Positions 4,405 through 46,382 of a stretch of DNA of 50,978 nucleotides are shown one piece after another. The notes under the pieces were generated by a model. The model was not told the origin of the DNA. It made no database searches and was given only the letters and a program-made list of their open reading frames with translations. The DNA lies in contig CAMOZC010000001.1 of assembly GCA_946630785.1 (NCBI GenBank), forward strand, positions 1 to 50,978. The letters are read 5' to 3'. Both the position numbers and the translations under genes were made by a program. Position 1 is the first letter of the stretch. Each line of letters opens with the position of its first letter. The DNA comes from an uncultured Clostridia bacterium (GTDB taxonomy: Bacteria; Bacillota; Clostridia; Christensenellales; UBA1242).

Positions 4405-4424
4405 TTATTACAAGCAAAACAAAA

Positions 4425-4456
4425 AGTCTGACAAAATCCGTCGGGCTTTTTTTTCT
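4425..4456 (+). terminator. Rho-independent terminator after the LRR gene
   Basis: agtctgac / gtcgggct stem (two G-U pairs), 7-nt loop, T8 run. Confidence 0.7.
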
Positions 4457-4481
4457 GGTTTGAATTTGGGGATTTGGTGGT

Positions 4482-5246
4482 ATGATGGAATTGTTAATGA
4501 ACGCCAAAATTTTAAACGGTAATGTTTTGAAATTAATTGCCATTGTTGCGATGACTTTGGACCATGTGGCGTGGGTAGTGTGGTCGGTGCATGGTTTTCA
4601 CGTGGGATTATTGGTGATACGGGTAATCGGCAGGCTGACTTTACCAATCATGTGTTTTTTAATTGCGGAAGGTTTCTTTTATACACGTAGTCGTGCAAAG
4701 TATGCGTTAAGGTTGTTTTTGTTTGCGGTGATTGCACATTTTGCTTTCATGTTTTGTTTTAATCAGGGGCAAGGAAAATGGTTTTTTGTGCCGTTCTTGG
4801 GTGGTGACTGGCAGGGGCAAACTAGTGTTATGTGGGGATTGGCTTGGGGATTGATTTTGCTGTGGGTTTTTCATACTAATTGGCACTGGGTATGGAAATT
4901 TTTGGCGGGTGCGGCGATTATCTTTTTGACTTTGCCGGCGGATTGGGGTTGTGTTGCGCCATTATTAATTTTGGCATTTGGCAAAAACCGCGGACATTTT
5001 TTATTACAAATGTTTTGGTTGGTGGCAATCGTTTGGGTGGATACATTTGTTACGCTGGCGTATTCTCATTCGGTTATGGCTTTGATTAACTTAATGGTGA
5101 TTATTTGTGTTCCGGTCTTATGGCAATACAACGGACAGCGCGGCAGGTCGGTACGCTTGAATCGTTTCTTGAAATGGTTTTTCTACCTTTATTACCCGTT
5201 ACATTTGTTTGTGATTGGGTTACTTCTGTTTTATGGTTTGATTTAA
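4482..5246 (+). CDS. TraX-family polytopic membrane protein (putative acyltransferase-like)
   Basis: N-terminal LKLIAIVAMTLDHVAW matches the TraX-family pattern (K-x-IA-x-x-x-M-x-x-DH). About 7-8 hydrophobic helices. The true start may be the ATG at 4497, because 4482 lies inside a TGgTATGAT extended -10 box (4478-4486). Confidence 0.6.
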   Translation: MMELLMNAKILNGNVLKLIAIVAMTLDHVAWVVWSVHGFHVGLLVIRVIGRLTLPIMCFLIAEGFFYTRSRAKYALRLFLFAVIAHFAFMFCFNQGQGKWFFVPFLGGDWQGQTSVMWGLAWGLILLWVFHTNWHWVWKFLAGAAIIFLTLPADWGCVAPLLILAFGKNRGHFLLQMFWLVAIVWVDTFVTLAYSHSVMALINLMVIICVPVLWQYNGQRGRSVRLNRFLKWFFYLYYPLHLFVIGLLLFYGLI

Positions 5247-12813: not shown

Positions 12814-13755
12814 TTAAATTGAACGTTCATAGCCGCGGATACGAACACGTTGTGTTGGTATTTGACTGAGTTTTTTACTAATCTTGGTGCATTGGCGCAT
12901 AGCGGTTGGACAACCATGATTTGGTTCTTCATATACTTTTGCTGATGCCTTGACCCATGCTCCGTGTGAACCAGCCGGGCTGATTTCGTGTTTGTTGCAA
13001 ATTCCTTGTTGGTAAGTAACAAAATAAAAATGATTACAAATCTCTTGGCAACCGTTGGCTTCAAAATCATTGACAACTTCGTCAACAATTAAACGTAGTT
13101 CAGGAAGAACGGGGTGATTCGATTTGAAACCTATGAATTGATTTTTCGCGGTTAGAATATCGCGTAATGTTCCCTTGAATAGTGGTGATGCGTAACGATT
13201 TAAGGCGGCGTGTAAAACTTCAATGTTATCCAGCAAATCGACACCTGCTTCGCCATAAAGCAAGCGTGCTAAATCGTCACGGTCTTGTTCTGTAAAAATT
13301 GAATGGTGAGTCTCTCTTGGAAAGATATTTACAAAATTATCATAATTAATTGGGGCTGGTCGATTGGGGACGGTGACCTCAACTTGCGGGGTTAGATGCC
13401 AGTTAGCAAGTTGCTGCATGGCTAAATTTTGATTATCCATGGTGCGTGGTTCGGCTACTTGTAGACTAAGACCTAATCCCAACAACATGGCAGCATAACG
13501 GCGCAATTGTGGTTGGTAGGCTTTTTTGATGGCAGTTTGAAATTTAGCCTTGAAGTCGTTGGCAACGTGAGTTAATTTAACTTGAGTTGTTTTTATGCCA
13601 GCCGTAACGTGTTTGACGGCTGCTTCTATTTTAGCTTTGCGTTTTTCTGCGGCGGCAGCTAAAGCCATTTGTTCTTCTGCCATTTTGCGTTCGGCGGCAA
13701 TACGTTGTTCTGCTTCCCATTGAAGATAGGCTTCGGCCTTTGCTAATAATCCCAT
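12814..13755 (-). CDS. Membrane-anchored SleB/CwlJ-type cell-wall hydrolase domain protein
   Basis: N-terminal charged coiled-coil (AEQRIAAERKMAEEQMALAAAAEKRKAK), one TM helix (YAAMLLGLGLSL), then a Hydrolase_2-like core (LARLLYGEAG...HAALNRY...NQF) and a Cys-rich C-terminus. Confidence 0.65.
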   Translation of the reverse strand: MGLLAKAEAYLQWEAEQRIAAERKMAEEQMALAAAAEKRKAKIEAAVKHVTAGIKTTQVKLTHVANDFKAKFQTAIKKAYQPQLRRYAAMLLGLGLSLQVAEPRTMDNQNLAMQQLANWHLTPQVEVTVPNRPAPINYDNFVNIFPRETHHSIFTEQDRDDLARLLYGEAGVDLLDNIEVLHAALNRYASPLFKGTLRDILTAKNQFIGFKSNHPVLPELRLIVDEVVNDFEANGCQEICNHFYFVTYQQGICNKHEISPAGSHGAWVKASAKVYEEPNHGCPTAMRQCTKISKKLSQIPTQRVRIRGYERSI

Positions 13756-19028: not shown

Positions 19029-22000
19029 ATGTATTGGGGATATTCATTATTAAAAGTGTGGGATGAAGTTTTTGAGCCACTTTTGTCAGGACTTGCGTAC
19101 ACGGTTTGGAGTGCAATCCCCAAATTCCTTTATACAATTTGGAAATTAATTGCTTGGGTTGTGTCTCAGATTGAAGGTATTTTTAAAAACCTGGCTGGCC
19201 TTGGTGGTGAAAACACTGACATGGTTACTTCAATTATTAATCATCCTGCAGTTCGACAAATTTTTGGTAATCTGGTTGGTTTTGCGACGGCGCTAATTGT
19301 TTTCTTTACGATTGTAAAAATCATTCAAGAACATTACAAAGAAAAGGATGGCGGTAATCCGTATAAGATTATTGTACGTACTTTTAAAGGTTTGTTAATG
19401 TTCTTTTTTGTTCAAGGTGCCGTGACGATTGGATTGGTTGCATCACAAACTATTTTCAGAGCTTTGGATGCTGCTACTGGTACTGGTTCAATGTCAATTG
19501 CTGGACAGGTTTTTAAAGCCATGGCTGCAGATGCAAATCGTAGAAATTCACCACGTTCAGATGGAACTCCGGTTTCGGCTGCGATGAATGAATATTGGGA
19601 TCGGGTTAACAATCAAAGCACCGATAAAGGCAATTATTTTGTAGTGCAAATGACAGGTAATAATAAAGCAAAAACCAGTCAAGCATTGAAAACGAAATAT
19701 GTAGAGTCATTCCCGATTTTGCGTTATGGTGTTGTTAATCAAGATGGTACCGTGACACCAGCCACCAGTTTGTTAAATACTTTTGCCAATGAAAAAGGAA
19801 ATAGAGATAGGGATGAGTACTGGGATCGTGTTGGAGAAGATTTGAGTGGGTTCTATACTACGGTCGGCAGTAGTAGTACGTCATGGTATAACGAAAGTGG
19901 TAGTGTCGCTGGTTCTGTTGGTTTTAAAAGTGATCTTTTACAAGGTATTAATTTAACAGTAACACCGACTATCAGTTTAACTTGGTCGCCAATTGATATT
20001 ACAGATTACGAATATGCTTTGAAATTGGATAGTAAAGTAGAATCAGACGTTGATGTGAAGGTTATGGGTAATGGTGTATTGATTAAAATGGGCATGCAGT
20101 ATGTCAAATACGCTTTAATATCTAAAACTCAAAAATCGCTGGAAGATAGTGCTAAGGTTTTTGGTATATCAATTAACGGTGGTGTAGGTTTACAGGGCGG
20201 TCAAGCGTCAGCAAGTTTTAGTATTGATACACCTTTTGATGATAAATTTTTTCAAATCTTGCAAACTATTTTGGTAAACACCGTGTATACTAATGCTTTT
20301 CAAGTTATCATTGAAATGATTCCAAAATTTCCGGGAGAGTTTAATATTGCTGCAATGCAAATCAATATAGTACAAATATTGGGGCCATTGGTTGCAAGTA
20401 TATTTAAAGAATCGGCTGTTCAAACTTTTCGTATGATGAATTTGATTCCAAAAGATGAAAAAGGCAATGAATTAGTTGAAGTCATGTCGGTGCGTCCGTT
20501 TGATCACAACAGTGGTATTTGGTCAACAGTTAATGGTGGATCTAAAGATTTAACCGTTGGTATCGAACAATACCGTATTGATGGCAACTTTGGTGATTTA
20601 TGGGGTCAATTAGTTAATAATTATTTGGAATTTGTCGAAAAATTGGAATCAACTTCTGACGATTCTTACCAAAAGGCTGCTGATGCGACGGAGGAATTTG
20701 GGGGTTTGGCTAATCGTACGGCTGAACAAAGTGTTTGGTTTGATTATCAAGCGAAAGTCAATTCTTATAATGATACGGCCGCTCGATGCTTAACGAATTT
20801 GGGTAATTTACTGAGGCTTAGAGATGATGCCAATGCACAAACTACTGCCGAAGGTAGACAGGCGATTTTAGACGATAGGGGTTATAATGGTAACATTTAT
20901 GCATTAGATACAGAGATTAAAGAAAATTGGGTTACGGTTGTTAAAGATTATAACTTTTTATATAATCGTAAGCCACGTGATTGTTATGCTGATCCACGTA
21001 TTGTGGGACCAGTTTATAAACCAATCGCCGAATTTAATACTACGAACAATCGTGCGGCTGATATGGGAATTGATGAGATTAAAGCTTCATTGTTCTCTGA
21101 TCATAGTGCTTGGAGCATAGGTGGAGGATCTGGTAACCACGCGGCTGGTGATGTTAAAGTAAATTTAGTAATTGATGATACGGGGCTTTATGGTGATGAA
21201 GGTGCTTATCGCTTGGTCGACTGGGGTGTTTATGGTGATTTGTATACCATTAATCCGTTGGGCACTAACTTGACAAAATATGCAGATATCTACTGTAGTG
21301 ATGTTTGGTATGAAAGCGTAAACATTACTAAGGAACTGGAAGCAATTGACAGTAATGGACACTATAGTCTGTCAAATTCTAAATATGTTGATATGCAAAA
21401 AACCCCCGATGGTACTTGGAATAAACAAGGTGGTATTGCGTATTTTATTGATAAAGCAGGAGATGCCGGTTATGGTACTACTGCTAAAAATGATTGGTAT
21501 CAACATTCTTCTGCGTGTGATATTCTTAATAAGTTGCGTTTGAATGGTCAAGGTTTCTGGTCCGTTAAAGGTATCTACCTACCAGACGTAAAAAATGAGC
21601 CAATTTTCTACTATTACGAAGGTACTAGTCATATGCCTGGTAAGGAGTGGGGAATGACTTTTACCCATTCTGTTAATCCTTCAAGTATTCGTACGTCATC
21701 GGCAAATGCCAATATGGCATTTAATGCTGGTTTATCTAAGCAAAGTGAATTGTTTGATTTAATGACAATGGATACTTCTACAGCTAAAGCGACGGAATTT
21801 GCGAAGAATATTGTTACATTCCGTGAATTGGGAACCTCGGATGGTGATGTAAAAAAAGATAAGAAAACTTTGCAAGAATGGTTGACAACTAAGCCAGCAA
21901 CAATGCCAAATGGTGATTACAAAACTGAAATGATTTGGGAAATGTCCCCTGAAAAAATTAATGATTTAATGGCTTCAAATGGTGCTGAAGGTCGTTGTTA

Positions 22001-25000
22001 TTTATTGAAGAGCAATAATACACCATATGTAAATAAAGTTGAGGATTGGGGTGGTTATATTGGTCAATTCTCGTGGTGGGATGGCGAAACGGTTAACGCT
22101 TTGTATGATGTTCCTTCAATTAATTTTGCGGTTGGTTTTATTGCGATTATTGCAGCTGTCGGTGTTTATTTGAATTTTGCTTTCGGTTTAATTCAACGTG
22201 TGGTTAACATGGCAGTATTGTATGTAATGAGTCCGGTTACCATCGCATTCTATCCATTTGATGATGGTAAACGCTTCACGGGTAGTTTCGTTACTCCATT
22301 CTACAAAGAGGCAATTAGTGCATTTGCCGTAATTATTTCGTTGAACCTGTTTGTTGTTTTAATGCAACCAGTTGAACAAGCCGTAGCTACTGCTACTGGT
22401 GCGAAAGCTTTAGGCTGGTTAAGTTTGGTTGCTTTTGTTTCAATGCTACCGAAAATTCGTGATTCAATCACATCAATCCTGGGTGCAGGTTCGTTGTCGG
22501 AAAAGAGTTTAACTGACGCGTTTAAAGGGTTCAAAAGTTCAATGATGCCATCTGATTTGAAAAATGCTTGGGGTGCTGGTAAAAAAGGTCTTAAATCGGC
22601 GGCACATGCAAGTGCAAAGATTCGCAATGCGGTTGATGCTCATAAGGTTAAGCTACAATCTAAACGTGATAAAGAATTAAGCCACTTGAACCAATTGAAG
22701 GCAGAAAATAAATTGGGTTGGTGGGGTGAGCGCCGTCTAAATAAACTTAATGCCCAAGATTCAATGCAGAAACGAATTGATGAAGCGCGTGCATCAGGAG
22801 ATAGTTCCAAGTTGAGCAAACGTGAACGCCGTCGTTTAAAACGTCAAAATGAAGCTGCTACTCAACAAGCTAAAGCAGCTATTAAGCGTGAGGATTATAA
22901 GAGTGATGCCGAATATCAACAAGCTCTTGATGATAAGAAGAATGCCTTGTTGAATGATGCAAACTTCAAAAGATCAGTTAATGGCGTTATGGCAGCAAAA
23001 CACCGGTTCAGTAATACCGCTTTTGCGAAAAACATGAAAGCAATTGGTAATTATTGGAACAATTCGGTTATTGGTGAAATGGTTGAAGCGAAACTTGGTA
23101 TGAATGGTGAATTATCACAAAATAAAGATTCATTCTGGGGTGAAGTTCAACGTTGGCGCGACAAAGCTGCTCGTGCCGATAATATGGGCAAGATTAAGAA
23201 TGAATTCTTGGCGCGTGAAAGAAAACGATATGAGCATTTTAATGTAATGTCAGACGTTAGTGTTGAATACCGTGTCAACAAAGATAAAGCTAATTATGAA
23301 CTTGAAAAAACTGTTGATGGTTTGACTAATTCAAGATTGGCTAGTATGAGTGATAAGGATAAATATATTGCGTTAAAAACAAAAGAATGGTTAAATCAAG
23401 GTAAAGATATTAATGACGCAAAAGAACTGGCTGAAATTGATGCATATAATTTCAAAGGTAACTTCGGTGATGCGGTATCGCAGATGGGTGGTGATAAAGC
23501 ATTGTTTGACGATTTGCATGCGCAATTCGAAAGTGAATTGAATCAAAAGAAAAACCTTGGTACTGGTGGTATTGTGGCTGAGTTAAACAAAGCTAAAGAA
23601 AAACGTGAAAATGATCTGACAACGAGTGCAGAGAACCTAGGTAAACTTCTTGATAAAACAAGTACTGAAGATTTAGCCAAAATTAAAAATGTTTTGAGCC
23701 ATGCAAAGAGTTCGACGTCCTTAGATCAATTAGCCGATAAACTGGGTTCACAACTTGGTATGGATGTTGAACAGGTCAAAAATCTGACGCTTCATGATTA
23801 TAAGGATGTTCAATCTAAATTGCAGATTAATGACGATATTGAACTATTGACTGCTGCGAAAAAATCAATTGAACTTGATATCAGTGCTACTAAAGTTGTT
23901 GAAGATAAATTGGCTGGTCTTGCTTTTAATGATAAGAATGCCGTTATGACTGCGCTAAATAACGCCAATGATATGAACCTTCATTCAACCAATAAAGATT
24001 CGGTTGGTTATAAATTAAATCAAGAACTGGCAAACCATAATGGTGATGTTAATAATCCAGAATATATTAAGGCCGCTGCTAGAATCAAACAGGAGGCGAT
24101 GGATCAATGTGATGCGATTTTACGTGAAATTGCAACACGTAACGAAATGGCAATTCGTGGGCAAGATATCATTAACAAAACTACTCAGGAATTTAGTTCA
24201 ACTCGTACAATGTCTACCTATACTGGGTACATGAAACAGCGTGAAGCCATTATGAGTGATGAAATGGATCCATACGCACATAAACTCTTGGTTAACGATA
24301 GTATGATCCGTGATATGCATAGTTCAGGTAATTATGCTGGCGCGGGTGAAAAAATGAAGATGGTGGTTGAAGCCGTTCGCCGCCACGATGATGAAACTAT
24401 CAGCAAACTTGGTTTTGATCAAAAAACTGTTGAAACATTAAATGATTGGGTTAAACAAGGTTTGGACAGTCGTTTGGATGGTATTTATAAATTGGGTACC
24501 TTCGATCATTCATTCCTCAGTGATGGTAGTTATGCCATGGGTGGTGATACTTTGAATGGGGTTGCTTCAGCCATGACCAATGTTTTACGTATGGCAGAAT
24601 TGAAAAACCTTTCGGGTAAATTTGAAGTTATGGTTAAAAATCAGTCCGATATTGAAAACTCTGCACGTAATATGGTTACTCAGATTAGGTCGGAAATTGA
24701 AAGTTCAATTAACGAAAATGCAAAATGGACACAGGACTTACTCAATGGTGCATTTAAAGATGCTAGTGGAAAGGCAATTAACAACGCTGAAGAGTTGGCA
24801 GCCGCAGTTAGTGAGGCCATGAGGACCATTAATGAAGAGGGAAATGATAAAGCCAATAAGCCGTGGATTAAGGATTTATTGAATGGATTAAACAAAGCCA
24901 AGAGTGATCATGGTGATGATTACGGTGCAATTGGTGCAATCGATAATGTGTTAAAAGGCTTTGATGCCGCTAAGCGTGCGAATATCGCATTTGAAAATTC

Positions 25001-25094
25001 ACAAAATGCGCAAGCCGATAAAAACTCATATGATGCTATGTGGCGTAAAATTGTCAACGAACAAATGAAAGGGCAATCTGGCTCTGGGAAGTGA
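19029..25094 (+). CDS. Giant (2021 aa) polytopic membrane protein, VirB6/TrbL-like by topology, with a large exposed insert and a long hydrophilic C-terminal domain
   Basis: TM cluster 1 spans about aa 20-145. A mostly hydrophilic region spans about aa 150-1030. TM cluster 2 spans about aa 1031-1145 (INFAVGFIAIIAAVGVYLNFAFGLI, VVNMAVLYVMSPVTIAFYPF, AISAFAVIISLNLFVVLMQPV, LGWLSLVAFVSMLPKI). The tail of about 880 aa is rich in K/E/D/N/Q. The gene lies directly upstream of a VirB4-class ATPase. Confidence 0.6.
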   Translation: MYWGYSLLKVWDEVFEPLLSGLAYTVWSAIPKFLYTIWKLIAWVVSQIEGIFKNLAGLGGENTDMVTSIINHPAVRQIFGNLVGFATALIVFFTIVKIIQEHYKEKDGGNPYKIIVRTFKGLLMFFFVQGAVTIGLVASQTIFRALDAATGTGSMSIAGQVFKAMAADANRRNSPRSDGTPVSAAMNEYWDRVNNQSTDKGNYFVVQMTGNNKAKTSQALKTKYVESFPILRYGVVNQDGTVTPATSLLNTFANEKGNRDRDEYWDRVGEDLSGFYTTVGSSSTSWYNESGSVAGSVGFKSDLLQGINLTVTPTISLTWSPIDITDYEYALKLDSKVESDVDVKVMGNGVLIKMGMQYVKYALISKTQKSLEDSAKVFGISINGGVGLQGGQASASFSIDTPFDDKFFQILQTILVNTVYTNAFQVIIEMIPKFPGEFNIAAMQINIVQILGPLVASIFKESAVQTFRMMNLIPKDEKGNELVEVMSVRPFDHNSGIWSTVNGGSKDLTVGIEQYRIDGNFGDLWGQLVNNYLEFVEKLESTSDDSYQKAADATEEFGGLANRTAEQSVWFDYQAKVNSYNDTAARCLTNLGNLLRLRDDANAQTTAEGRQAILDDRGYNGNIYALDTEIKENWVTVVKDYNFLYNRKPRDCYADPRIVGPVYKPIAEFNTTNNRAADMGIDEIKASLFSDHSAWSIGGGSGNHAAGDVKVNLVIDDTGLYGDEGAYRLVDWGVYGDLYTINPLGTNLTKYADIYCSDVWYESVNITKELEAIDSNGHYSLSNSKYVDMQKTPDGTWNKQGGIAYFIDKAGDAGYGTTAKNDWYQHSSACDILNKLRLNGQGFWSVKGIYLPDVKNEPIFYYYEGTSHMPGKEWGMTFTHSVNPSSIRTSSANANMAFNAGLSKQSELFDLMTMDTSTAKATEFAKNIVTFRELGTSDGDVKKDKKTLQEWLTTKPATMPNGDYKTEMIWEMSPEKINDLMASNGAEGRCYLLKSNNTPYVNKVEDWGGYIGQFSWWDGETVNALYDVPSINFAVGFIAIIAAVGVYLNFAFGLIQRVVNMAVLYVMSPVTIAFYPFDDGKRFTGSFVTPFYKEAISAFAVIISLNLFVVLMQPVEQAVATATGAKALGWLSLVAFVSMLPKIRDSITSILGAGSLSEKSLTDAFKGFKSSMMPSDLKNAWGAGKKGLKSAAHASAKIRNAVDAHKVKLQSKRDKELSHLNQLKAENKLGWWGERRLNKLNAQDSMQKRIDEARASGDSSKLSKRERRRLKRQNEAATQQAKAAIKREDYKSDAEYQQALDDKKNALLNDANFKRSVNGVMAAKHRFSNTAFAKNMKAIGNYWNNSVIGEMVEAKLGMNGELSQNKDSFWGEVQRWRDKAARADNMGKIKNEFLARERKRYEHFNVMSDVSVEYRVNKDKANYELEKTVDGLTNSRLASMSDKDKYIALKTKEWLNQGKDINDAKELAEIDAYNFKGNFGDAVSQMGGDKALFDDLHAQFESELNQKKNLGTGGIVAELNKAKEKRENDLTTSAENLGKLLDKTSTEDLAKIKNVLSHAKSSTSLDQLADKLGSQLGMDVEQVKNLTLHDYKDVQSKLQINDDIELLTAAKKSIELDISATKVVEDKLAGLAFNDKNAVMTALNNANDMNLHSTNKDSVGYKLNQELANHNGDVNNPEYIKAAARIKQEAMDQCDAILREIATRNEMAIRGQDIINKTTQEFSSTRTMSTYTGYMKQREAIMSDEMDPYAHKLLVNDSMIRDMHSSGNYAGAGEKMKMVVEAVRRHDDETISKLGFDQKTVETLNDWVKQGLDSRLDGIYKLGTFDHSFLSDGSYAMGGDTLNGVASAMTNVLRMAELKNLSGKFEVMVKNQSDIENSARNMVTQIRSEIESSINENAKWTQDLLNGAFKDASGKAINNAEELAAAVSEAMRTINEEGNDKANKPWIKDLLNGLNKAKSDHGDDYGAIGAIDNVLKGFDAAKRANIAFENSQNAQADKNSYDAMWRKIVNEQMKGQSGSGK

Positions 25095-27743: not shown

Positions 27744-27771
27744 AAAGCCCGGATTGCGCGGGCTTTTTTTA
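27744..27771 (+). terminator. Rho-independent terminator ending the T4SS-like module
   Basis: aaagcccg / cgggcttt hairpin with a 7-nt loop and T7. Confidence 0.85.
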
Positions 27772-27850: not shown

Positions 27851-28231
27851 ATGGAATTAAAAAATAAATTAAAACATTTTGTTACTAATGGGATGAAACT
27901 TAAGATGAACAAGAAGCATGCTAAGCCGGTGGATTTGAACCAGCTTGCGCGGATTGATTTTCCAGAATTAGCAGACTTTGACTTGCAGTCATACGTTAAT
28001 GCACATGATGATTTTGCATTCCAAGTAATGGTCAACCTTTTGAACAGTGCCAACAAAAAACGTGAAAATATTTATGTTGAAAGTTTTGACCATAAGGCGT
28101 TGCCGGTAAAATTTTATTCCGCCGATAAGGCAACATTGGATAATGTTTATCAGACGGTCTTTGAGAAGTCAAGAGCGGAATACTTTGGTAAAAATCAAGA
28201 ACAACAAAACGATAGTGGAATAACAATGTAA
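27851..28231 (+). CDS. Hypothetical 126-aa soluble protein, monocistronic
   Basis: Own promoter (TTGATT 27790-27795, 18 nt, TGaTAAAAT 27811-27819), SD AAGGAG, and terminators on both sides. No TM segment and no recognised motif. Confidence 0.55.
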   Translation: MELKNKLKHFVTNGMKLKMNKKHAKPVDLNQLARIDFPELADFDLQSYVNAHDDFAFQVMVNLLNSANKKRENIYVESFDHKALPVKFYSADKATLDNVYQTVFEKSRAEYFGKNQEQQNDSGITM

Positions 28232-28233
28232 TA

Positions 28234-28260
28234 AAAAGCCCGCAAATCGCGGGTTTTTTA
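28234..28260. terminator. Bidirectional rho-independent terminator (126-aa gene and ntp operon end)
   Basis: cccgc / gcggg stem extended by A/T pairs, with an A-run and a T-run on the two sides. Confidence 0.8.
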
Positions 28261-28890
28261 TTCGGCGTTGTTTTGCATGTCTTTGATTTTCATGACGCGG
28301 ATTTGCGTTTCGCGTTGGTTTTCGTCCAGTTTCATAGTAATGAATTTAATCTTGGCTTGAATATCCGGAATCATGTTGTATTCCAAACTGTTGATGCGGC
28401 GACGGACTTTTTGGATTTCGTCGGCCAGCATGCTGCAAGTTTTTTCAATGTTGGCCAGTTCAATCATGGTCGCTGTTAATTGTTGGAGTAAGCGAATGGA
28501 TTCGTCGAAAGCAACTGGTGTTGTTAATAAAATTTTTTCCTTGGGGTGGTCGGTGTCGGCAATCTCAATGTGGGGTACAGTTAGTCCCATGATGTTTTGT
28601 GTTGAACAACTAAATGCCAGCGAATGGTGGCGCGCTGACAGGGCGGCATCAACCGCGGCAGTGGACATGTGAGTATTGGCAGCGACGAATAAGCGCAAAG
28701 CATGGTTGAGTTTTTTTTCAACCAATTCACGTAGATTGCGGTTTTTTTGAATTAGTTCAGCAAACTTGTGCACCATTTCGTCATATTTATCTTCCAACAA
28801 TTTGTGTGCACGCCGTGCTGTTTTTAGGCGGTCGTTTTGACGTAACCGCTCCATGCGTGTGGCATTAATATTAGTCGTAGTTGGTGTCAT
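28258..28890 (-). CDS. ntpD: V-type ATPase subunit D
   Basis: NATRMERLR...[18 protein letters not shown] is a typical V/A-ATPase D N-terminus. Last gene of the operon. Confidence 0.88.
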
Positions 28891-30256
28891 CTTCGTAATA
28901 TTTATCCAAAATGGCTTTGTTAATACGGGTTAGTTCGACTTTTGGTAACAAGCGTAGTAATGACCAACCCAAGTCCAAAGTTTCAGCAATCGTGCGGTTA
29001 GTATTGAAACCTTGGTTGATAAATTGATTTTCGAATTCTGTCGCAAATTTACAATACAGCTGGTCGGTTGCGGACAGTGCGGATTCACCCAGAATCTGTG
29101 CTAACTCTTTACTATCTTTACCTTTGGCGTAACAGGCGAAGAGTTGGTTTAAAACTCCTTTGTGGTCCTCACGGGTTTTACCTTTACCGATACCTTTGTC
29201 TTTTAAACGAGATAAAGAAGGTAAAACGTCAATCGGTGGTGTAATTCCTTTTTTATAAAGGTCACGCGAAATAACAATTTGCCCTTCGGTAATGTAACCG
29301 GTTAAGTCTGGAATGGGGTGGGTTTTGTCATCTTCAGGCATGGTTAAAATTGGAATTTGCGTAATGGAACCTTTACAACCTTTAATGCAACCTGCACGTT
29401 CGTAAAGTGAGGCCAAGTCGGTATACAAATAACCTGGATAACCGCGACGTCCTGGAATCTCTTTACGGGCAGCCGAAACTTCGCGTAGTGCTTCGGCGTA
29501 ATTGGTCATATCGGTTGTAATTACCAGAACATGGTAATCCAGTTCAAAGGCTAAATACTCAGCCACGGTTAATGCGACACGTGGGGTAGCGATACGTTCC
29601 AGCGCTGGGTCGTTGGCTAAATTGATGAACATGACCGAACGCGAAAGTGCACCCGTTTCGGCAAATGAATTCATGAAGTAAGCCGCCTCATCATAGGTGA
29701 TACCAATCGCCGCGAAGACAATGGCAAATTTACTATCACTGTTGGGTACTGTGGCTTGACGGGCGATTTGCGCGGCTAATTCAGCATGTGGCATACCTGA
29801 CATAGAAAAGATGGGAAGTTTTTGTCCACGCACTAAGGTGTTTAAACCATCAATACTGGAAATACCGGTTTGAATAAAATCTTGTGGATAGTCGCGTGCC
29901 GTGGGGTTAATTGGTGCTCCGTTAATGTCTAATTTTTTGGTGGCGATTAGGGGCGCGGCACCGTCTTTCGGACGGCCCAAACCATCAAAGACACGACCCA
30001 AAATATTTGGTGCCACGGCAACTTCTAAACCGTGTCCAGTGAATTTGACCGCATTATCGTGAATACCTAAACCTTGTCCAGCGGTAAACATTTGCACAAT
30101 GGCTTTATCGTCGAGGACTTCCAAAACTTTACCATAACGAACAGTACCGTCATCGGCTTTGATTTCCACAAACTCATTGTAGGTTACACCTTCGGTGTTG
30201 GTAACGACTAACAAAGGTCCGACAGCACTTTGAATGGTCTTGTAATATTTGTTCAT
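28871..30256 (-). CDS. ntpB: V-type ATPase subunit B
   Basis: 461 aa, colinear with the V/A-type B subunit ([23 protein letters not shown]). Confidence 0.95.
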
Positions 30257-31992
30257 GCCAATTTACCTCCTAATTCATATTTAATGCGGTTAGTCAGTTC
30301 GGAAATTTTTTCCGCTTGGTCGTTTGGAATGTAACGGAATTGTGCAAATTCTTCGCGTACCGTTGGCAAAATAATTTGCTCGTAAGGAATGCCTTTACGC
30401 ACAGCGGCATCCGCCAGATTGTAATAAGTCATCATCGCTTCCAACATTAAAAATTGTTTTTTCGGGGCAGCGTAAGTATCAACTTCGCTCATCGCGTCTT
30501 GCATCAAATAATTTTCACGTAAAAGCGTGGCAGTGCTTAAAATCAGGCGGTCACCGTCAGATAAAGAATCTTCACCAACCAAACGCACGATTTCTTCTAA
30601 GTTAGCGGATAATTGTAAAATCTTCATGGCTCCTTGGCGATATTTAACATAATCGGGTGAAATGTTGTCGCGGTACCAATTTTCTAATTGGTCGGCGTAT
30701 AAAGAGTATGATGTGAGCCAGTCAATCGCGGGGAAGTGACGGCGGTAAGCCAAAGCAGCAGAGAGACCCCAGAAAACTTTGACAATACGCAAGGTGGCTT
30801 GCGAGACGGGCTCGCTTAAATCCCCACCGGGCGGCGAAACTGCACCAATGGCAGTGATGGAACCAAGTTGTGATTCGGAACCGAGAACTTGAACACGTCC
30901 CGCGCGTTCGTAAAATTCTGCGATACGACTGCTTAAATAAGCAGGGTAGCCTTCTTCGCCTGGTAGTTCTTCCAAACGTCCACTCATCTCACGTAATGCT
31001 TCTGCCCAACGACTAGTACTATCTGCCATAATAGCTACGTCATAGCCCATATCGCGGAAATATTCCGCAATGGTAATGCCTGTGTAGATGCTGGCTTCGC
31101 GAGCAGCAACCGGCATATCACTGGTGTTAGCAATTAAGATTGTACGTTTCATTAATGGTTCGCCAGTTTTGACATCAACCAATTCTGGGAATTCATTTAG
31201 AACGTCGGTCATTTCGTTACCACGTTCGCCACAGCCAATGTAGACAACGACTTGTGCATCTGACCATTTGGCAATTTGGTGTTGGCATACGGTCTTACCA
31301 GAACCAAAAGGACCAGGAATAGCGGCAACACCACCTTTAGCAATTGGGAATAAAGTATCAATGGTACGTTGTCCTGTGATTAATGGGACACTAGTTGCCA
31401 ATTTGCGACGAATTGGACGGGCTTGGCGCACTGGCCATTTTTGTAGCATTTGTACTGGTTTACCATCAATTTCGGCAATTGTATCAGTAATGGTATAACT
31501 ACCAGAATTGATTTTGGTGATTTTTCCTTGGATACCAAAAGGTACCATGATGCGGTGTTCAATAACGGTGGTTTCTTGTACTGTACCCAGCACATCACCA
31601 GCCGTTACCGTGTCACCAACTTTTTTGGTTGCTTTAAAATCCCATTTAGTTGAGCGATTTAATTTATCAACGGAAATTCCGGTAGTAATGCGGTTACCAA
31701 CTAGTTCACGAATATCTGCCAAAGGACGGCCAATTCCGTCAAAGATGCCAGACATAATACCAGGGGCTAATTCCATGCAAAGCGGGGCATTGGTGTTGAT
31801 AACAGGGTCACCAACTTTTATTCCGCTGGTTTCTTCATAAACTTGGATACTAGCATGGTCACCACGTAATTCAATAACTTCGCCAATTAATTTAGCATCA
31901 CCAACATAAACAACGTCATGCAAATTAGCACTATCAAGATTGGCGGCAACAACTAATGGTCCACTGATTTTGATGATTTTTCCTTGATTCAT
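30253..31992 (-). CDS. ntpA: V-type ATPase catalytic subunit A
   Basis: Walker A GPFGSGKT, non-homologous insert region, [10 protein letters not shown]. 4-nt overlap with ntpB. Confidence 0.96.
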
Positions 31993-32318
31993 AAATTTCC
32001 TCCTAGTTTGATTCCCATTGCTTTTTCAAAATTTTGGTTTAATCGCTGCATGCCGTAATGACTGTGTGTCACTGTGTCTGGAATGGGCATAATGATGGGG
32101 TAAGGGATTCCCGCGCGACTATCGAGATATTTACCAATTTGGGCTGCGGTTTTTTCCAAAATTAAAATAATTTTATAACCCGCAGTTTCCAATGTTTGGC
32201 AACGATGAATGACGGCCTCGGGTTCAGTGTCATAGTAACAATCATAACCAATCGCTCTGAAAACTTTAACAATCGCTTGTTCGCCAATAACGGCAATCGC
32301 TTTATTGGAATTGTTCAT
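31989..32318 (-). CDS. ntpG: V-type ATPase subunit F (NtpG in E. hirae nomenclature)
   Basis: IAVIGEQAIVKVFRAIG pattern, about 109 aa, position between the C and A subunits. Confidence 0.8.
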   Translation of the reverse strand: MNNSNKAIAVIGEQAIVKVFRAIGYDCYYDTEPEAVIHRCQTLETAGYKIILILEKTAAQIGKYLDSRAGIPYPIIMPIPDTVTHSHYGMQRLNQNFEKAMGIKLGGNL

Positions 32319-32976
32319 ACAGCCCCCTTAAATTTTCACGCAACCAAGTAACATCGTAATTAAAACGCTTGCTGATTAAAATGGCTTTAATAATGATGAG
32401 TTCTTTTTCGCGTTGTAAATACCACCAGAAAAGTGGGTTTGGCTTGAAGATGTCATCTTTGTCAACTTCACCCAAAGCCTCTAAACGTTCTTGAATTAAA
32501 TCTTCGCGTTGTTCGGCGCTGGAATGGGGAAAGATATCTAATTGGTTAGCTTGTAAACTTCCCCCCGGAAAGACGATATCACTCCCTTTGTAGAAATTGC
32601 GAACGTTGATTAGGTCAACCCATGTTGTTAAATACTCACGGATTGATGCGGTTTTTACCAACGGAATTTGTGTGGAAAGAATGGCAAAAATTGATTGGGT
32701 ATTATTTTCGTTAAGTTGACTCATCGCTTGCACGCAAGCGAGAAGTGCCGAATCCTCGCAGAGGTCTTTAAAGATGGTTAAAGTCTGTTGGTGTGCAGCA
32801 TCTAGTAATTCATCATCGTCCGTAAAGTTGGTTTGGTAGCCACATTCTTGCAAAATGGTTAAACAGTCTTCACGGGTATTAGCGGTGGCCATGTCACGAA
32901 TGCGTTTGCGTGTTAAAAGATGGGCATCGCCCTGCATGATAATGCTCGCATTCGCAAAAGTTATGCCACCTGCCAT
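32302..32976 (-). CDS. ntpC: V-type ATPase subunit C (d-like), short 224-aa form
   Basis: Operon position between E and F, and helical composition. Shorter than the ~320-330 aa usual for this subunit. Confidence 0.65.
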   Translation of the reverse strand: MAGGITFANASIIMQGDAHLLTRKRIRDMATANTREDCLTILQECGYQTNFTDDDELLDAAHQQTLTIFKDLCEDSALLACVQAMSQLNENNTQSIFAILSTQIPLVKTASIREYLTTWVDLINVRNFYKGSDIVFPGGSLQANQLDIFPHSSAEQREDLIQERLEALGEVDKDDIFKPNPLFWWYLQREKELIIIKAILISKRFNYDVTWLRENLRGLYEQFQ

Positions 32977-32977
32977 C

Positions 32978-33511
32978 TTATAAAACTCCTAATATTTCTG
33001 CGACGGTTGGCGCCAGTGGTTCACGCAATTCTGCTAAAATGTTATCAATGCCCAACTCTAAACGATAGGTTTGGTTTTCAATGATAATACCACCGTTAAT
33101 TGCTGTTGTGGTTGGTAGTTCAGGGAAAGCATGCGCCCAGTTTTTAGCGATTAAAATTTTATCACCGGGTTTAGCGTATTTTTTGGTATATGCATCAACA
33201 ATAGTTTGAATTTCTTGTTTGGATGCGTTTAATAATTTTTCGCGTGCCGTGGTGAAGGCTTGTTCAATCCAGTCTTGTTGTGCGTTGATTTGCGCTTTGA
33301 TACAAGACACTTCGTGTGCGCGCTCTTGTTGTGTTTTACGATATTCAAGACTGTCTTGACCCTGTTTTAGGGCAAGTTTTTTACGTTCATCGGCTTGGGC
33401 TTGTGCTGCTGCAATTTGTTCAGACGCACGTTTTTCCGCAGCCGAAATCAAGTTGTTGGCTTGTTGTTTAGCATTACGTAAAATTTTTTTGGTTAAATCT
33501 TGTTCAGTCAT
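32978..33511 (-). CDS. ntpE: V-type ATPase subunit E
   Basis: N-terminal long charged helix (ILRNAKQQANNLISAAEKRASEQIAAAQAQA) plus a globular C-terminus. Operon position fits. Confidence 0.8.
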   Translation of the reverse strand: MTEQDLTKKILRNAKQQANNLISAAEKRASEQIAAAQAQADERKKLALKQGQDSLEYRKTQQERAHEVSCIKAQINAQQDWIEQAFTTAREKLLNASKQEIQTIVDAYTKKYAKPGDKILIAKNWAHAFPELPTTTAINGGIIIENQTYRLELGIDNILAELREPLAPTVAEILGVL

Positions 33512-33520
33512 GAATACTCC

Positions 33521-34003
33521 TTACAATGATGCTGGCGTGGTTGGAATTAACAATACGCACAAAATTGAAATAATTAAACCAAACAAAGCAAACAATTCAG
33601 TGAAAACTGCCATGGTAATTGCACGTCCGATGGCATCATCGCGTTTGCCAACCATGACAACGGCTGAAGCACAGACTTTACCTTGGGCAATCGCAGCAGT
33701 GGTACCAGCAATCGCAACGGCTAAACAACCACCCAAAACCATCAAGCCTTGGCTAACTGAATAATATGAACCATCGTTGGCTAATACGGCTTTAACCAAA
33801 ACCAAGAACGCAACGATAAATCCGTACAAGGCACTTGATGACGGAATCAGTTGCAAGATTAAAGTCTTACTGTATTTTTCTGGTTTCTCAGCGATAATAC
33901 CACAACTGGCACGCTGTACATGAAAAACACCAAAAGCCGAACCTGTACAGCAACAACCGACAGCCAGTGCAGCACCAATTAAAGCAAAAGCATTTCCTCC
34001 CAT
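33521..34003 (-). CDS. ntpK: V-type ATPase proteolipid subunit K (4-TM, duplicated hairpin)
   Basis: Colinear with my recalled E. hirae NtpK: LILQLIPSSSALYGF, AIAQGKV, AVFTELFALFG (the carboxylate E is conserved). Confidence 0.9.
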   Translation of the reverse strand: MGGNAFALIGAALAVGCCCTGSAFGVFHVQRASCGIIAEKPEKYSKTLILQLIPSSSALYGFIVAFLVLVKAVLANDGSYYSVSQGLMVLGGCLAVAIAGTTAAIAQGKVCASAVVMVGKRDDAIGRAITMAVFTELFALFGLIISILCVLLIPTTPASL

Positions 34004-34035
34004 ATTTTTTTACTCCTCCTTTCCTTTCTCTCTTT

Positions 34036-35985
34036 TTATTTACGCGTATCATTTTGGATACGGGCGTAGCGAAGTTTGCTGGCCATGGGTACAAACGGAG
34101 TACCTGTGCCTTCATAAAATTTCCCGAAGAATTCGACAAACTGTAAACGGGCATTGTGAATATAGGCTGATAACAAACTTAAGGCAATGTTTAAAGCATG
34201 GAACGCAATTGCAATGATGCCACCAAAGATGATACCAATTACGCCGGCACTGGCAAACATGCCACATAAGAAATTGGCAACGTAGGCAATAACGCAACCG
34301 ACCAAACCAACACCGAACAGGCGAGCATATGATAAGATATCACTGAAGTAGTTAACTAGTTTATAAGCGCCAGAAAACATGCCCAGGATATAGCCACCAA
34401 AACGATGACCAAGACCGTTGAACAAAACGATGGCAGCAAAACCAACGCCTGTAATAATTAAACCTGGTATCATTAATTGATGGAACCAGTCAACAATAGC
34501 ATAGTTAAGTGGAATAATTTTTTGAATTAAAGCAGGGAAGGCTAAAGTTAAACCAATGAACATGACCAGGTTCGGTAAAGCCTTGAACCAAGCAGTGGCG
34601 TGTTGTTTCAAACGTAGTTGATTAATCAAGTTTAGTAAGTTACCAACGGTAATTTGAATCACGCCTAAGTATAGTGATAACGCAAAGAAAAAAGTAGCGT
34701 CATTACCGAGTGGATCAATCAGCGTTTTGTTCATCATAAAAGCGGGTAAATTTAAGCCAAAGCAACTGTTAAATAATAAACCCCATAAAGCAGCAGAAAT
34801 ACCACCCATACAGAAAAGTGCGATTAGTTGGCGCGTTCCGTCTTGTGGACGCTTGATTAATAAAATCACTGCCGTAATTACGGAAAGTAATAAGCCATAG
34901 CCAATATCGCCAAACATCGAACCAAAGAATAGAAAATAAAAAATGGCAACAAATGGGTTGGGGTCAATATCGTTGCGGCCAGGCGCGCCATACATCATGG
35001 TGATGGCATTATAAGGTGCAACTAATGGGGTATTGTGGATTAACGCTGGGGGAGTATCGGTGTCGCTGGCGTCTTGTAAAGTCACCGCAATGTTTTTGTC
35101 AGTTTGGTTAATTAACTGTGTGAATTCTTCGGCTTTGCGGGCTGGAATCCAACCATTGACGATAAAACAATATTTGGTTTGAATCGTCGAAGTTAAAACT
35201 TCTAGAGTATCAATCTCGTTTAATAAATAATCGTAATAGATTTTTAGTAAATTGATTTGTTCTGTAGTGGGTTGATTGTTTTGTTGAATTCTTGTCAATT
35301 CGGAAGCCAAGTTATCGTTTTGTTCGGTCAAGTATTCAATTTGTTTTAAAGGTGTACGCTCAAAATTATAATAAGTAGGAAATGACGTGAAATTATAATC
35401 GACGATAGTTTCAGCAATGGGGTAATTATCAGCGTCACCAGTGATAACAACAATCAATTGTTTATTATCTGTGGGATAGGTTTCGTAAATAAAATCCTTG
35501 GTATCGATATCGTTGGTAAAGCGTTTAAAATCATCGGCAGCGATTAAACCAGCTAACACAAATGTGTTTTTGGTGGATTTTAATAAATTGGCTGCGATAG
35601 GTAAAGCCTTGAATTTTTCCAAATTATCAATGGTAGTTTGATTAAGATTGATTTGTGTTTGTAAATCAGTAACGTCAATTTTGTTTTTTTCAAATTGACA
35701 CAGTAATTTTTCAATTTGTTTTTGTTTCTTGGTGATTTGTTTTAATTCTTGATAAGTTAACTTGATTGGTTTACTATTGGCCTTTAAAAAATTTAAAACA
35801 CCAGAAACACGGTTTAATTCTGTATTGTAATCGTTTTTTAAAAGTGTGTCGGCAGAGGATAATGGTGTAGTACTGCTTTTGTAAAAGGTAATTTGAAAAT
35901 TGCCTGTTGCTTTTAAAGTATCAATTACTTTCTTTAAGGCCGAACGTTCTCCGACTAAAGAGACTTTTTTCATCTTTTCAATCAT
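34036..35985 (-). CDS. ntpI: V-type ATPase subunit I (a-like stator/ion channel)
   Basis: Soluble N-terminal half with coiled coils, C-terminal polytopic half containing the conserved Arg motif ILSYARLFG. Confidence 0.9.
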   Translation of the reverse strand: MIEKMKKVSLVGERSALKKVIDTLKATGNFQITFYKSSTTPLSSADTLLKNDYNTELNRVSGVLNFLKANSKPIKLTYQELKQITKKQKQIEKLLCQFEKNKIDVTDLQTQINLNQTTIDNLEKFKALPIAANLLKSTKNTFVLAGLIAADDFKRFTNDIDTKDFIYETYPTDNKQLIVVITGDADNYPIAETIVDYNFTSFPTYYNFERTPLKQIEYLTEQNDNLASELTRIQQNNQPTTEQINLLKIYYDYLLNEIDTLEVLTSTIQTKYCFIVNGWIPARKAEEFTQLINQTDKNIAVTLQDASDTDTPPALIHNTPLVAPYNAITMMYGAPGRNDIDPNPFVAIFYFLFFGSMFGDIGYGLLLSVITAVILLIKRPQDGTRQLIALFCMGGISAALWGLLFNSCFGLNLPAFMMNKTLIDPLGNDATFFFALSLYLGVIQITVGNLLNLINQLRLKQHATAWFKALPNLVMFIGLTLAFPALIQKIIPLNYAIVDWFHQLMIPGLIITGVGFAAIVLFNGLGHRFGGYILGMFSGAYKLVNYFSDILSYARLFGVGLVGCVIAYVANFLCGMFASAGVIGIIFGGIIAIAFHALNIALSLLSAYIHNARLQFVEFFGKFYEGTGTPFVPMASKLRYARIQNDTRK

Positions 35986-35987
35986 GA

Positions 35988-36284
35988 TTACGCTCCGTGT
36001 ACGGCTTCAATAATGTAATTTACCGCCGCATCCATTTTGGTTTTAGGAACTTCAATTAAAACAGTTGGTTCCGGTAAAGCTTCTGGTTGTGGTAATTGGG
36101 CAATTGTTTCGGCGATTTCAGCGGTAGTATCATTTTCAATTTTAGTAATTCTTTGATAGGTTTGTTTTTCAATTTCGCGAACTTTAACTTGGGCTTGGGT
36201 AATCATTTTTTCAGCCTGTTCTTCAGTATGATTAATAGCTTGTAAAGTGTCGGCTAACATATTGATTAATTTTAATTCATCCAT
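35988..36284 (-). CDS. ntpF: Small V-ATPase peripheral-stalk-like subunit (G/H-like; NtpF position)
   Basis: 98-aa helical charged protein at the first position of the operon, as in ntpFIKECGABD. Confidence 0.55.
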   Translation of the reverse strand: MDELKLINMLADTLQAINHTEEQAEKMITQAQVKVREIEKQTYQRITKIENDTTAEIAETIAQLPQPEALPEPTVLIEVPKTKMDAAVNYIIEAVHGA

Positions 36285-39553: not shown

Positions 39554-39560
39554 AAAATTG

Positions 39561-46291: not shown

Positions 46292-46296
46292 GCGAC

Positions 46297-46375
46297 ATTG
46301 TATTCCACAATTTGAAATAAAGTCAAGAATTGTTGCAAATAATATCTTGCCAATCCTTGGGTTTGGCTTTATAAT
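46297..46375. promoter_or_regulatory. Divergent promoters for corA and the giant surface protein gene, both leaderless
   Basis: Plus strand: TTGCCA (46347-46352), 17 nt, TATAAT (46370-46375), 7 nt, ATG (46383). The minus-strand elements are given in the corA entry. Confidence 0.7.
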
Positions 46376-46382
46376 TATCAAC

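Follow-up and report, generated by a model that had tools for sequence, protein, structure and literature searches.

What is a protein of 2021 amino acids (aa), built of two small hydrophobic clusters, some 880 residues of hydrophilic sequence between them and as much again behind them, doing next to a VirB4-type ATPase among housekeeping genes? The question is raised by the window analyzed here, a contig of 50,978 nucleotides (CAMOZC010000001.1) from an uncultured Clostridia bacterium. An earlier reading of the DNA, made from its letters without database searches (the sequence-only reading), saw in the protein a relative of VirB6/TrbL, perhaps fused with missing parts of a type IV secretion system (T4SS). 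I consider it probable that the protein belongs, as an extreme case, to the extended VirB6 class, serving as a polytopic subunit of a T4SS of the Gram-positive/Mollicutes type (like MPF-FATA, where MPF stands for mating-pair formation), and I offer below a working model of its action. The locus consists of three elements:

19029..25094, + strand: gene of the probable extended VirB6-like protein, 2021 aa
25101..27725, + strand: gene of a VirB4-type ATPase, 874 aa, with an N-terminal membrane hairpin
27744..27766, + strand: intrinsic-terminator-like hairpin closing the operon

The membrane core

The open reading frame (ORF) is 2021 codons long, as had been noted, and its two hydrophobic clusters, borne out by Kyte-Doolittle analysis, lie at exactly the nucleotides given for them before:

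19086..19463, + strand: hydrophobic cluster 1, aa 20-145, probable first half of a VirB6-like domain
22119..22463, + strand: hydrophobic cluster 2, aa 1031-1145, probable second half of that domain

Hydropathy peaks fall at aa 78-96 and 121-139 in cluster 1, which also has a weaker amphipathic helix at about aa 20-46, and at aa 1037-1055, 1058-1076, 1094-1112 and 1122-1140 in cluster 2, where the segment MSPVTIAFYPF is found, as described, at aa 1067. The AlphaFold2 model has N-terminal helices at aa 2-56, 73-104 and 111-150 and cluster 2 helices at aa 1033-1073, 1088-1123 and 1126-1151. The four helices formerly counted in cluster 2 therefore stand as four hydropathy peaks but not as modeled helices, of which there are three. 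By either count (six to seven hydrophobic helices by hydropathy, six long ones in the model) the protein has at least five.

To what are the clusters related? In searches of NCBIfam profiles, aa 19-158 align with positions 2-139 (E 5.6e-7) and aa 1014-1122 with positions 171-277 (E 3.4e-12) of NF045848, the 322-position profile of the MMCAP2_0566 family of conjugal transfer proteins; taken together, these two colinear stretches give the whole protein an E of 6e-19. The profile NF045889, representing the transmembrane protein Mbov_0396 of an integrative and conjugative element (ICE), is matched by the whole protein at E 9.6e-10 and by cluster 2 alone at E 1.3e-10, and cluster 2 matches the pLS20_p028 family as well. 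Weak matches to Pfam TrbL_4 are likewise colinear, positions 12-102 falling in cluster 1 (19.7 bits) and 135-232 in cluster 2 (17.3 bits), and the precomputed annotation of one orthologue, P0013, includes PF19597. With aa 1001-1165 as query, an exhaustive search gathers 608 relatives. More distant relatives, of 590-960 aa (670-962 aa is also given), pass the cut-offs of NF045848 and NF045889, and a profile of the ICE-type relatives matches the N-terminal cluster of the family with an hhalign probability of 99.95. Because the NF045848 and TrbL_4 matches are colinear, the distant relatives pass the cut-offs, and a VirB4 gene lies downstream, the clusters are, as judged from sequence profiles, the two halves of a single VirB6-type domain. 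The VirB6/TrbL assignment made by the sequence-only reading is upheld by the same evidence.

The core is also what the family preserves. At least 36 orthologues of 2023-2402 aa keep the architecture at full length, and identity across the family is 54-81% in cluster 1 and 63-84% in cluster 2, the best-conserved part of the protein, where R1057, N1060, S1068 and P1069 are invariant.

A large extracellular domain held between membrane anchors is also the gross layout of surface proteins of the EsaA/YueB/PIP kind, and one might suppose that the giant protein is such an adhesin or phage receptor, or something like a tape-measure protein, that merely sits beside an ATPase. An EsaA extracellular fragment (7jqe) does rank third in a Foldseek search, at E 0.57 and a TM-score of 0.04-0.09, and a tape-measure match appears in a PDB sequence search at E 0.16. 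Neither hit is significant, however, no segment matches Pfam YhgE/Pip or a tape-measure family of PHROGs, the core matches conjugation-type VirB6-like families at the E and probability just given, and the gene's order and spacing with VirB4 are invariant in a chromosomal context. The idea is very improbable.

The partner ATPase

The protein encoded 6 nucleotides (nt) downstream matches NF045975 (VirB4_plasma, the Mbov_0397 VirB4 family) over aa 12-871 with 590.4 bits, against an equivalog cut-off of 590, and Pfam P-loop_TraG at 1.7e-24. Its Walker A (GKSGGGKS, aa 506) and Walker B (IIVVDE, aa 745) motifs are intact, and hydrophobic residues at aa 22-66 form an N-terminal membrane hairpin, for which homology to VirB3 is a mere possibility. 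The profile match and the close gap show that the 874-aa ATPase named in the sequence-only reading is a VirB4 encoded directly after the giant gene; the same adjacency is found in all 14 of the loci that reach far enough. The operon ends in a stem of 8 bp, five of them GC pairs, followed by a run of T. No small two-helix ORF fits in the gaps of 53, 6 and 125 nt around the pair.

Both proteins find their best profile matches in a pair known from mycoplasma ICEs, CDS16 (Mbov_0396/MMCAP2_0566) and CDS17 (Mbov_0397, VirB4/TraE), and the order is the same, membrane protein and then ATPase. CDS16 of these elements is considered the likely VirB6 and CDS17 the VirB4 (PMC12857230). Mbov_0396 appears to be CDS16, judging from its place beside Mbov_0397, an ATPase family of the CDS17 type.

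The insert and the tail

Between and behind the halves of the core stand two hydrophilic regions of about equal length:

19479..22118, + strand: central insert, aa 151-1030, very probably an extracellular multi-domain region (from its charge; mixed beta and helical domains in AlphaFold2)
22464..25091, + strand: C-terminal tail, aa 1146-2021, all alpha-helical in AlphaFold2, exchanged as a whole allele in relatives (locus L022 versus L023)
23946..24668, + strand: better-conserved helical domain near the C-terminus, aa ~1640-1880 (invariant residues; predicted local distance difference test, pLDDT, 85-93)

Computed percentages of residues agree with the composition described earlier. The insert contains G 8.8, S 7.8, D 7.5, N 7.4, Y 5.0 and W 2.3%, is also rich in T, and has a net charge of -30; the 876-aa tail contains A 10.7, K 10.7, N 8.6, D 8.1, E 6.6 and Q 4.0%. 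Identity is 11-58% across the family for the insert and 21-33% between species for the tail. Within the tail, the domain at aa ~1640-1880 has invariant residues (S1653, S1658, G1660, D1757, E1876), and 40-residue blocks of aa 1641-1840 are mostly 28-41% identical (one block 18%) as against 11-25% for the linker at aa 1401-1640. In L016 it is the sole part of the tail past about profile position 1500 that is still matched (E 6.8e-8). The variable linker as a whole, aa 1160-1640, accepts insertions of up to 110 residues in relatives.

Several details seen in these regions before turn out to carry less than was thought. The repeated motifs EYWDRV (aa 188 and 263) and W..DLLNG (aa 1900 and 1946) are present, but neither is a meaningful duplication: a 6-mer repeat is expected in 11% of shuffles, and the second copies of both, not conserved across the 36-member family, are restricted to the window's species. 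Internal duplication was rejected on these grounds and from a self-BLASTP without internal repeat. The stretch at aa 405-460, suggested as extra membrane segments, peaks at a hydropathy of 1.71, has the polar sequence IAAMQINIVQILGPLVASI, and is modeled by AlphaFold2 as helices within a globular part of the insert; a membrane segment there is unlikely. The tail, pictured as long helices or coiled coil, is indeed helical, yet the model shows many helices of 10-55 residues packed in bundles rather than a single coiled coil.

How did so large a protein arise? The sequence-only reading proposed that missing T4SS parts were fused into one polypeptide, and for this homology gives no support. Scanned alone against Pfam, NCBIfam and PHROGs, insert and tail have no match, nor do they match any PDB sequence; Foldseek comparisons of both AlphaFold2 models with PDB, and of the N-terminal model with BFVD, yield nothing at E<=0.001; and short relatives already have a loop and a tail. 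One such relative is the VirB6-like protein of the sister lineage L017, whose gene is preceded by that of a 554-aa lipoprotein, with a gene for a 619-aa hydrophilic protein beyond VirB4 and a VirD4 gene nearby, a layout that recalls the backbone of mycoplasma ICEs. Fusion with neighboring genes was considered and rejected, as the family's hidden Markov model and hhalign detect no similarity to the L017 lipoprotein, 619-aa protein or VirD4, or to giant surface proteins encoded by the L017 and L019 loci. It is possible that insert and tail took over the functions of missing parts.

Locating the second cluster in 97 representative relatives gives these lengths of loop and tail:

ICE-type proteins: 189-435 residues before the second cluster, tail 155-500
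Intermediate group: 185-1051 residues before the second cluster, tail 287-1473
The window's clade: 737-1075 residues before the second cluster, tail 866-1224

Single proteins show the same gradation: L017 (745 aa) has a loop near zero and a basic, low-complexity tail of ~330 aa, P0038 (1237 aa) a loop of ~70-100 aa, L016 (1520 aa) one of ~400 aa, and L020 (1841 aa) one of ~750 aa. Over the entire family the loop runs from ~0 to ~900 aa and the tail from ~150 to >1400 aa. The loops of these four lineages cannot be aligned with one another, save for the last residues ahead of the second cluster. Since the two clusters match NF045848 at positions 2-139 and 171-277, the insert occupies, on the evidence of these alignments, a loop already present in relatives. 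A huge expansion of that loop, between the third helix and the second cluster, splits the core; a second expansion enlarges the tail; and ordinary relatives have short versions of both. The homologues and length variation that the sequence-only reading advised looking for thus exist, as full-length orthologues and a graded series of shorter relatives.

Hydrophilic domains in a central or C-proximal position mark the extended VirB6 proteins, a recognized class comprising Rickettsiales paralogues, MPF-FA homologues of 700-900 aa (TcpH), F-type TraG and Legionella DotA, with at least five hydrophobic helices in addition to their hydrophilic domains (PMC12857230). An 880-aa insert and an 876-aa tail bring the protein within that definition (PMC12857230). 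What the extra domains contribute to structure or function is acknowledged as unknown in a 2025 review of T4SSs (PMC12857230).

Inheritance of the pair

Is the pair a passing visitor in this chromosome? The comparison covers 14 loci from species representatives of GTDB, the closest relative L015, and more distant contigs. The order HflX, GlnRS, SLOG, Zn peptidase, YchF, giant protein, VirB4 is common to L001-L015, L018 and L022-L024 (no ORF was detected at the place of the Zn peptidase in L002, L003, L005 and L008). In more than 15 species the pair stands at the same place between housekeeping genes, and what follows it is either an operon for a V-type ATPase or the gene of a P-type ATPase. 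The other genes of the contig are all housekeeping genes (trigger factor, ClpXP, S12/S7/EF-G, acetate kinase, RecN, exonuclease VII and others), and neither integrase nor transposase nor repeat boundaries were found on it. Gene content and synteny led to rejection of an origin in a mobile element or phage.

VirB4 diverges as its neighbors do. Between species, protein identity is 82-97% for the neighbors, 81-90% for VirB4 and 31-43% for the giant protein. In deeper lineages the identity of VirB4 is 69% where that of YchF is 77%, 58% where VatA has 68% and VatB 73%, and 45% where HflX has 41%. Synteny persists, with the module still among housekeeping genes, in lineages whose VirB4 identity is as low as 55-57%. 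Against L015 the ratio of nonsynonymous to synonymous substitution rates (dN/dS) is 0.013 for VirB4, 0.00-0.08 for the neighbors and 0.26 for the giant gene. Conserved synteny, the housekeeping surroundings, and a VirB4 whose divergence tracks that of its neighbors establish the pair as an old, vertically inherited chromosomal module of a deep clade of gut and rumen Clostridia, neither an ICE nor the remnant of one. The public labels of the relatives are Clostridia bacterium, Eubacteriales bacterium or Christensenellaceae bacterium, for metagenome-assembled genomes (MAGs) from rumen and gut.

The thought of a decaying ICE, its giant protein functionless and drifting, comes from there being just two T4SS genes left and from the low identity of the giant protein where its neighbors are so similar. 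The data already contradict it: both genes are intact in every locus, VirB4 has its Walker motifs and a very low dN/dS, the membrane core is as conserved as stated above, even the most variable cassette of the giant gene (next section) has a dN/dS of 0.29, and the synteny is old and free of the marks of mobile elements mentioned. Of all the explanations considered here I give this one the least credit, next to none.

Exchange of cassettes

The giant protein does not simply evolve faster than its neighbors; parts of it are replaced. The first such part is

21099..21638, + strand: tip cassette, aa 691-870, hypervariable and exchanged through recombination inside the species (window versus L015)

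The window and L015 belong to the same species (dS, the synonymous divergence, 0.03-0.12 in neighboring genes), and the differences between their giant genes are concentrated, with sharp edges, in aa 691-870, reaching 48 per 90 nt. There dS is 1.06, compared with 0.095 in the remainder of the gene, and amino acid identity is 61% as against 98-100% on either side. In the family at large, too, no other part of the insert is so poorly conserved or has so many gaps. This is the signature of an imported allele.

A second case concerns the tail. L022 and L023, from independent samples, share 98.7% identity across 9.6 kb that end near aa 1193 of the giant gene. From there the whole tail (~2.8 kb) cannot be aligned; similarity resumes 35 nt ahead of the stop codon and runs on into VirB4. 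The tail alleles of these otherwise nearly identical genomes share 24-49% of their amino acids. In a third case, L024 versus L011, it is the front half that differs: identity is 97-100% upstream, drops to 60-85% between the start codon and roughly aa 1040, and is back at 94-99% in the tail and VirB4. At the protein level, aa 1151-1400 and 1401-1640 stand out as additional cassettes inside the gene. Homologous recombination thus swaps three parts of the giant gene as alleles between genomes otherwise 97-100% identical, namely the N-terminal half, the tip cassette and the tail; it appears to be anchored in cluster 2 and in the conserved sides toward YchF and VirB4. Chimeric assemblies are unlikely, because both flanks return to the same background. 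No silent donor cassettes were found in the window.

Such exchange points to diversifying selection on whatever the exchanged modules touch, and for the insert it fits a surface-exposed contact domain. The tail is another matter. Because the whole tail is swapped while VirB4 stays constant, its main partner is argued to be something variable (cargo, partner cell or antagonist) and not VirB4.

Which side of the membrane?

The features that bear on topology are these:

19317..19379, + strand: nearly invariant basic loop KI[IL]Q[DE]HYKxKxGGNPYK...R, aa 97-117 (36 sequences), probably cytoplasmic
20589..20963, + strand: helical hairpin or bundle in the insert, aa 521-645, a possible stalk (AlphaFold2 helices 521-566, 568-602, 607-616 and 623-645)
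22449..22928, + strand: beginning of the tail, close to the membrane and strongly basic, aa 1141-1300 (K+R 36, D+E 19, net +17)

The basic loop, which in the window's protein reads KIIQEHYKEKDGGNPYK...R (K+R 5 against D+E 3), is retained even in the distant relatives P0038 and P0039. Charge is distributed so that, by the positive-inside rule, the insert should lie outside and the tail inside. The central region, earlier said to be surface-exposed, is very probably extracellular: its flanks are acidic, its net charge is strongly negative, a basic loop comes before the helix that precedes it, and it contains a cassette imported by recombination. As for the cytoplasmic scaffold on the ATPase that the tail was said to be, its cytoplasmic place fits the positive-inside rule, but the exchange of tails beside a constant VirB4 speaks against a role limited to docking on that ATPase.

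The AlphaFold2 model of aa 1-1160 is mediocre (pLDDT 66, predicted template modeling score, pTM, 0.38). It shows a low-confidence variable linker at aa 250-300, a beta-sandwich at aa 303-400, the bundle at aa 521-645 (pLDDT 79-92 from aa ~560 on, 52-59 for aa 521-560), an alpha/beta region at aa 660-870 (pLDDT ~78-89), disorder at aa 874-918, and a beta-rich domain at aa 928-1013. The model of the tail consists of helices only (pLDDT 77.7). An insert outside and a tail inside would require an odd number of passes in cluster 2, in agreement with the three modeled helices, and the invariant Arg1057 would then sit inside a long helix.

Might the tail instead be extracytoplasmic as well, or be pushed through the channel toward the partner, there to serve in partner recognition, mating-pair stabilization or exclusion, its alleles marking compatibility groups? 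There is a precedent of a kind in TraG of F and SXT, an extended VirB6 whose C-terminal domain is proposed to reach toward the partner cell. The four hydropathy peaks of cluster 2 would leave tail and insert on one side of the membrane. The tail's divergent alleles in nearly identical genomes, and its dN/dS of 0.26-0.37 at background dS, resemble those of an exposed or partner-recognizing domain. In the R388 structure, moreover, most VirB6 helices are not in the membrane but periplasmic (PMC12857230). On the other side, the tail begins with 160 residues of net charge +17, the very basic, low-complexity tails of short relatives such as L017 would be hard to export, AlphaFold2 gives cluster 2 three helices and not four, and no co-varying gene for a partner or for exclusion adjoins the operon. 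I regard a tail outside as a serious but minority possibility, and a tail inside as distinctly the likelier of the two placements.

A working model

I propose that the conserved helices of the giant protein would form a membrane channel or platform atop the VirB4 hexamer, probably as a pentamer like other VirB6 proteins, with the basic loop at aa 97-117 and the basic beginning of the tail facing the cytoplasm. The acidic 880-aa insert would project outward as a stalk with a variable tip that contacts a partner cell or a surface, taking on the job done in plasmid systems by separate wall-spanning and adhesin proteins. The helical tail would be a cytoplasmic platform that selects or holds the material transported.

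A good deal weighs against all this and should be set out together. Every score against a VirB6-type profile is below its curated cut-off: 68.5 bits for NF045848 (cut-off 90), 38.4 for NF045889 (cut-off 70), and 15.2 for TrbL_4 (cut-off 27), a family that none of 30 scanned ICE-type relatives matches either. Foldseek against PDB finds no solved VirB6 (TrwI of R388) at E<=0.001, with a core model of modest quality (pLDDT ~55-79), and PDB sequence profile searches with the family (A1) and with the ICE-type relatives (A4) return only low-complexity helical noise. The 51-kb contig has no gene for a coupling protein or relaxase and none like VirB1, VirB8 or VirB3/VirB2, and the pair may or may not belong to a complete machine. 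If the tail did no more than dock on the ATPase, its replacement as a whole beside an invariant VirB4 would be poorly explained. The placement of the tail inside is provisional, founded on the positive-inside rule and a mediocre monomer model, and by analogy with the extramembranous helices of R388 the counting of helices may mislead.

The missing coupling protein and relaxase invite a different explanation, that the pair is a T4SS-derived machine for uptake or release of DNA, like Helicobacter ComB or that of the gonococcal genetic island, with the insert as a wall-spanning conduit rather than an adhesin. Systems without VirD4 are known, ComB among them (PMC12857230), and the window contains RecN, exonuclease VII and other genes of DNA handling, though these are ordinary housekeeping genes. 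A recombining, hypervariable tip, however, makes better sense if it contacts a partner, phage or host that varies than if it belongs to a passive conduit, and the sister lineage L017 retains VirD4 beside its module. I think this explanation unlikely, if worth keeping in mind.

The boldest form of the extended VirB6 model is that a conjugation machine has been cut down to two chromosomal genes, the giant VirB6 building the whole apparatus, its insert replacing the wall-spanning, stalk and adhesin proteins, and its tip and tail cassettes setting specificity for partner or cargo (groups of compatibility or kin recognition). I advance this tentatively, as a conjecture that would more probably fail than hold. 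If it were true, the pair would be a core organelle of cell-to-cell exchange or host contact, comparable in importance to the essential T4SS of Patescibacteria.

Relation to known systems

The mycoplasma pair is the nearest in sequence. Its system, like the locus in the window, lacks VirB1- or VirB8-like partners (PMC12857230). Its membrane proteins fit profiles of 306-322 positions, whereas the window's protein, at 2021 aa, falls below the family cut-offs. The mycoplasma genes travel on a mobile ICE that also encodes a DDE transposase, VirD4 (CDS5) and a lipoprotein (CDS14), whereas the pair in the window is fixed among housekeeping genes and the other ICE genes are not on the contig. Compared with other extended VirB6 proteins, this one has a central as well as a C-terminal extension, ~880 aa each, without detectable similarity in sequence or fold to anything; it belongs to a two-gene chromosomal module; and its extensions are allelic cassettes, though no search was made for accounts of such cassettes in the others.

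The closest biological parallel is the T4SS of Patescibacteria/Saccharibacteria, chromosomal, vertically inherited and relaxase-less: derived from MPF-FATA, it has lost its link to a relaxase and is thought to have been co-opted for non-conjugative cell contact (10.1101/2025.01.22.634366; PMC12857230). Those loci keep VirB1-, VirB3-, VirB8-, VirD4- and pilin-like genes and a VirB6 of ordinary size, while the locus in the window has only a VirB6-like protein and VirB4, and its host is a gut Clostridia. Loci of recombining surface proteins show the same sharp blocks of high dS, near-identical flanks and divergent alleles kept within a species, but here the variable protein is a core secretion subunit, and a cytoplasmic location is predicted for one of its exchanged modules. 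Size, the two extensions, the two-gene locus and the exchange of cassettes set this protein apart from its known relatives.

What would follow? The family offers a natural series for asking what the domains of extended VirB6 proteins do, with the same core and ATPase, loops of ~0, 400, 750 and 880-900 residues, and tails from 150 to more than 1400. The pair would be the second T4SS, after that of Patescibacteria, to be domesticated as a vertical chromosomal feature, pared to two genes. Replacement of tip and tail points to surfaces under selection and supplies ready sets of alleles for studies of specificity. Because public MAG annotation calls the two genes "hypothetical protein" and "DUF87 domain-containing protein", a widespread, putative secretion-type machine of gut and rumen Clostridia is being overlooked.

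Other features of the locus and contig

Just past the terminator of the VirB4 gene lies an ORF for a hydrophilic protein of 126 aa (27851-28231, + strand), found only in the window and L015 (97.6% identity, dN/dS 0.14). In the window, L002, L003, L005, L009, L015, L016 and L018, VirB4 is separated from the P-type ATPase gene by the V-type ATPase operon (28258-36284, - strand). The operon is absent there in L004, L006, L010, L011 and L022, where VirB4 is followed by the P-type ATPase, a presence/absence difference of ~8 kb. The slot after the operon is variable, holding unrelated small ORFs (L005, L016, L018), a 786-aa ORF (L001) or nothing (L022).

Very large surface proteins are met near related loci. 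A VirB4 locus is accompanied in L017 (1-5088) by a giant surface protein of 2438 aa with an N-terminal hydrophobic segment (signal peptide or anchor) and in L019 (12688-22670) by a lipoprotein of 3855 aa; both are sister lineages, with a VirB4 of 45-46% identity. The window has a second very large ORF of its own (46206-50786, + strand), 1526 aa as listed and without a Pfam match. It overlaps the CorA gene of the opposite strand, for which reason its real start is probably Met60 (at about nt 46383); a signal or anchor sequence follows, and residues at aa ~1458-1485 are hydrophobic. It is likely a big surface protein, unrelated to the giant VirB6-like one.

Some 14 kb upstream of the pair (3304-5246, + strand) are genes for a BspA-type leucine-rich-repeat protein (366 aa) and a TraX-family membrane protein (254 aa); TraX is named after a transfer gene of the F plasmid, yet it is common in the chromosomes of Firmicutes. 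At 12814-13755 (- strand) a 313-aa protein weakly matches a cell wall hydrolase (Hydrolase_2); its identity among relatives is 26-67%, as against 85-95% for its neighbors, and its length ranges from 255 to 614 aa. An Rfam scan of the window matched neither rRNA nor anything else. Over the window, a complete contig, GC skew is positive in nearly all 2-kb bins (~+0.1 to +0.25), falling only over the V-type ATPase operon. Tandem genes of the SurE family (39558-41128, + strand; 267 and 256 aa) overlap by 4 nt, and the pair is conserved in L006, L010 and L011.

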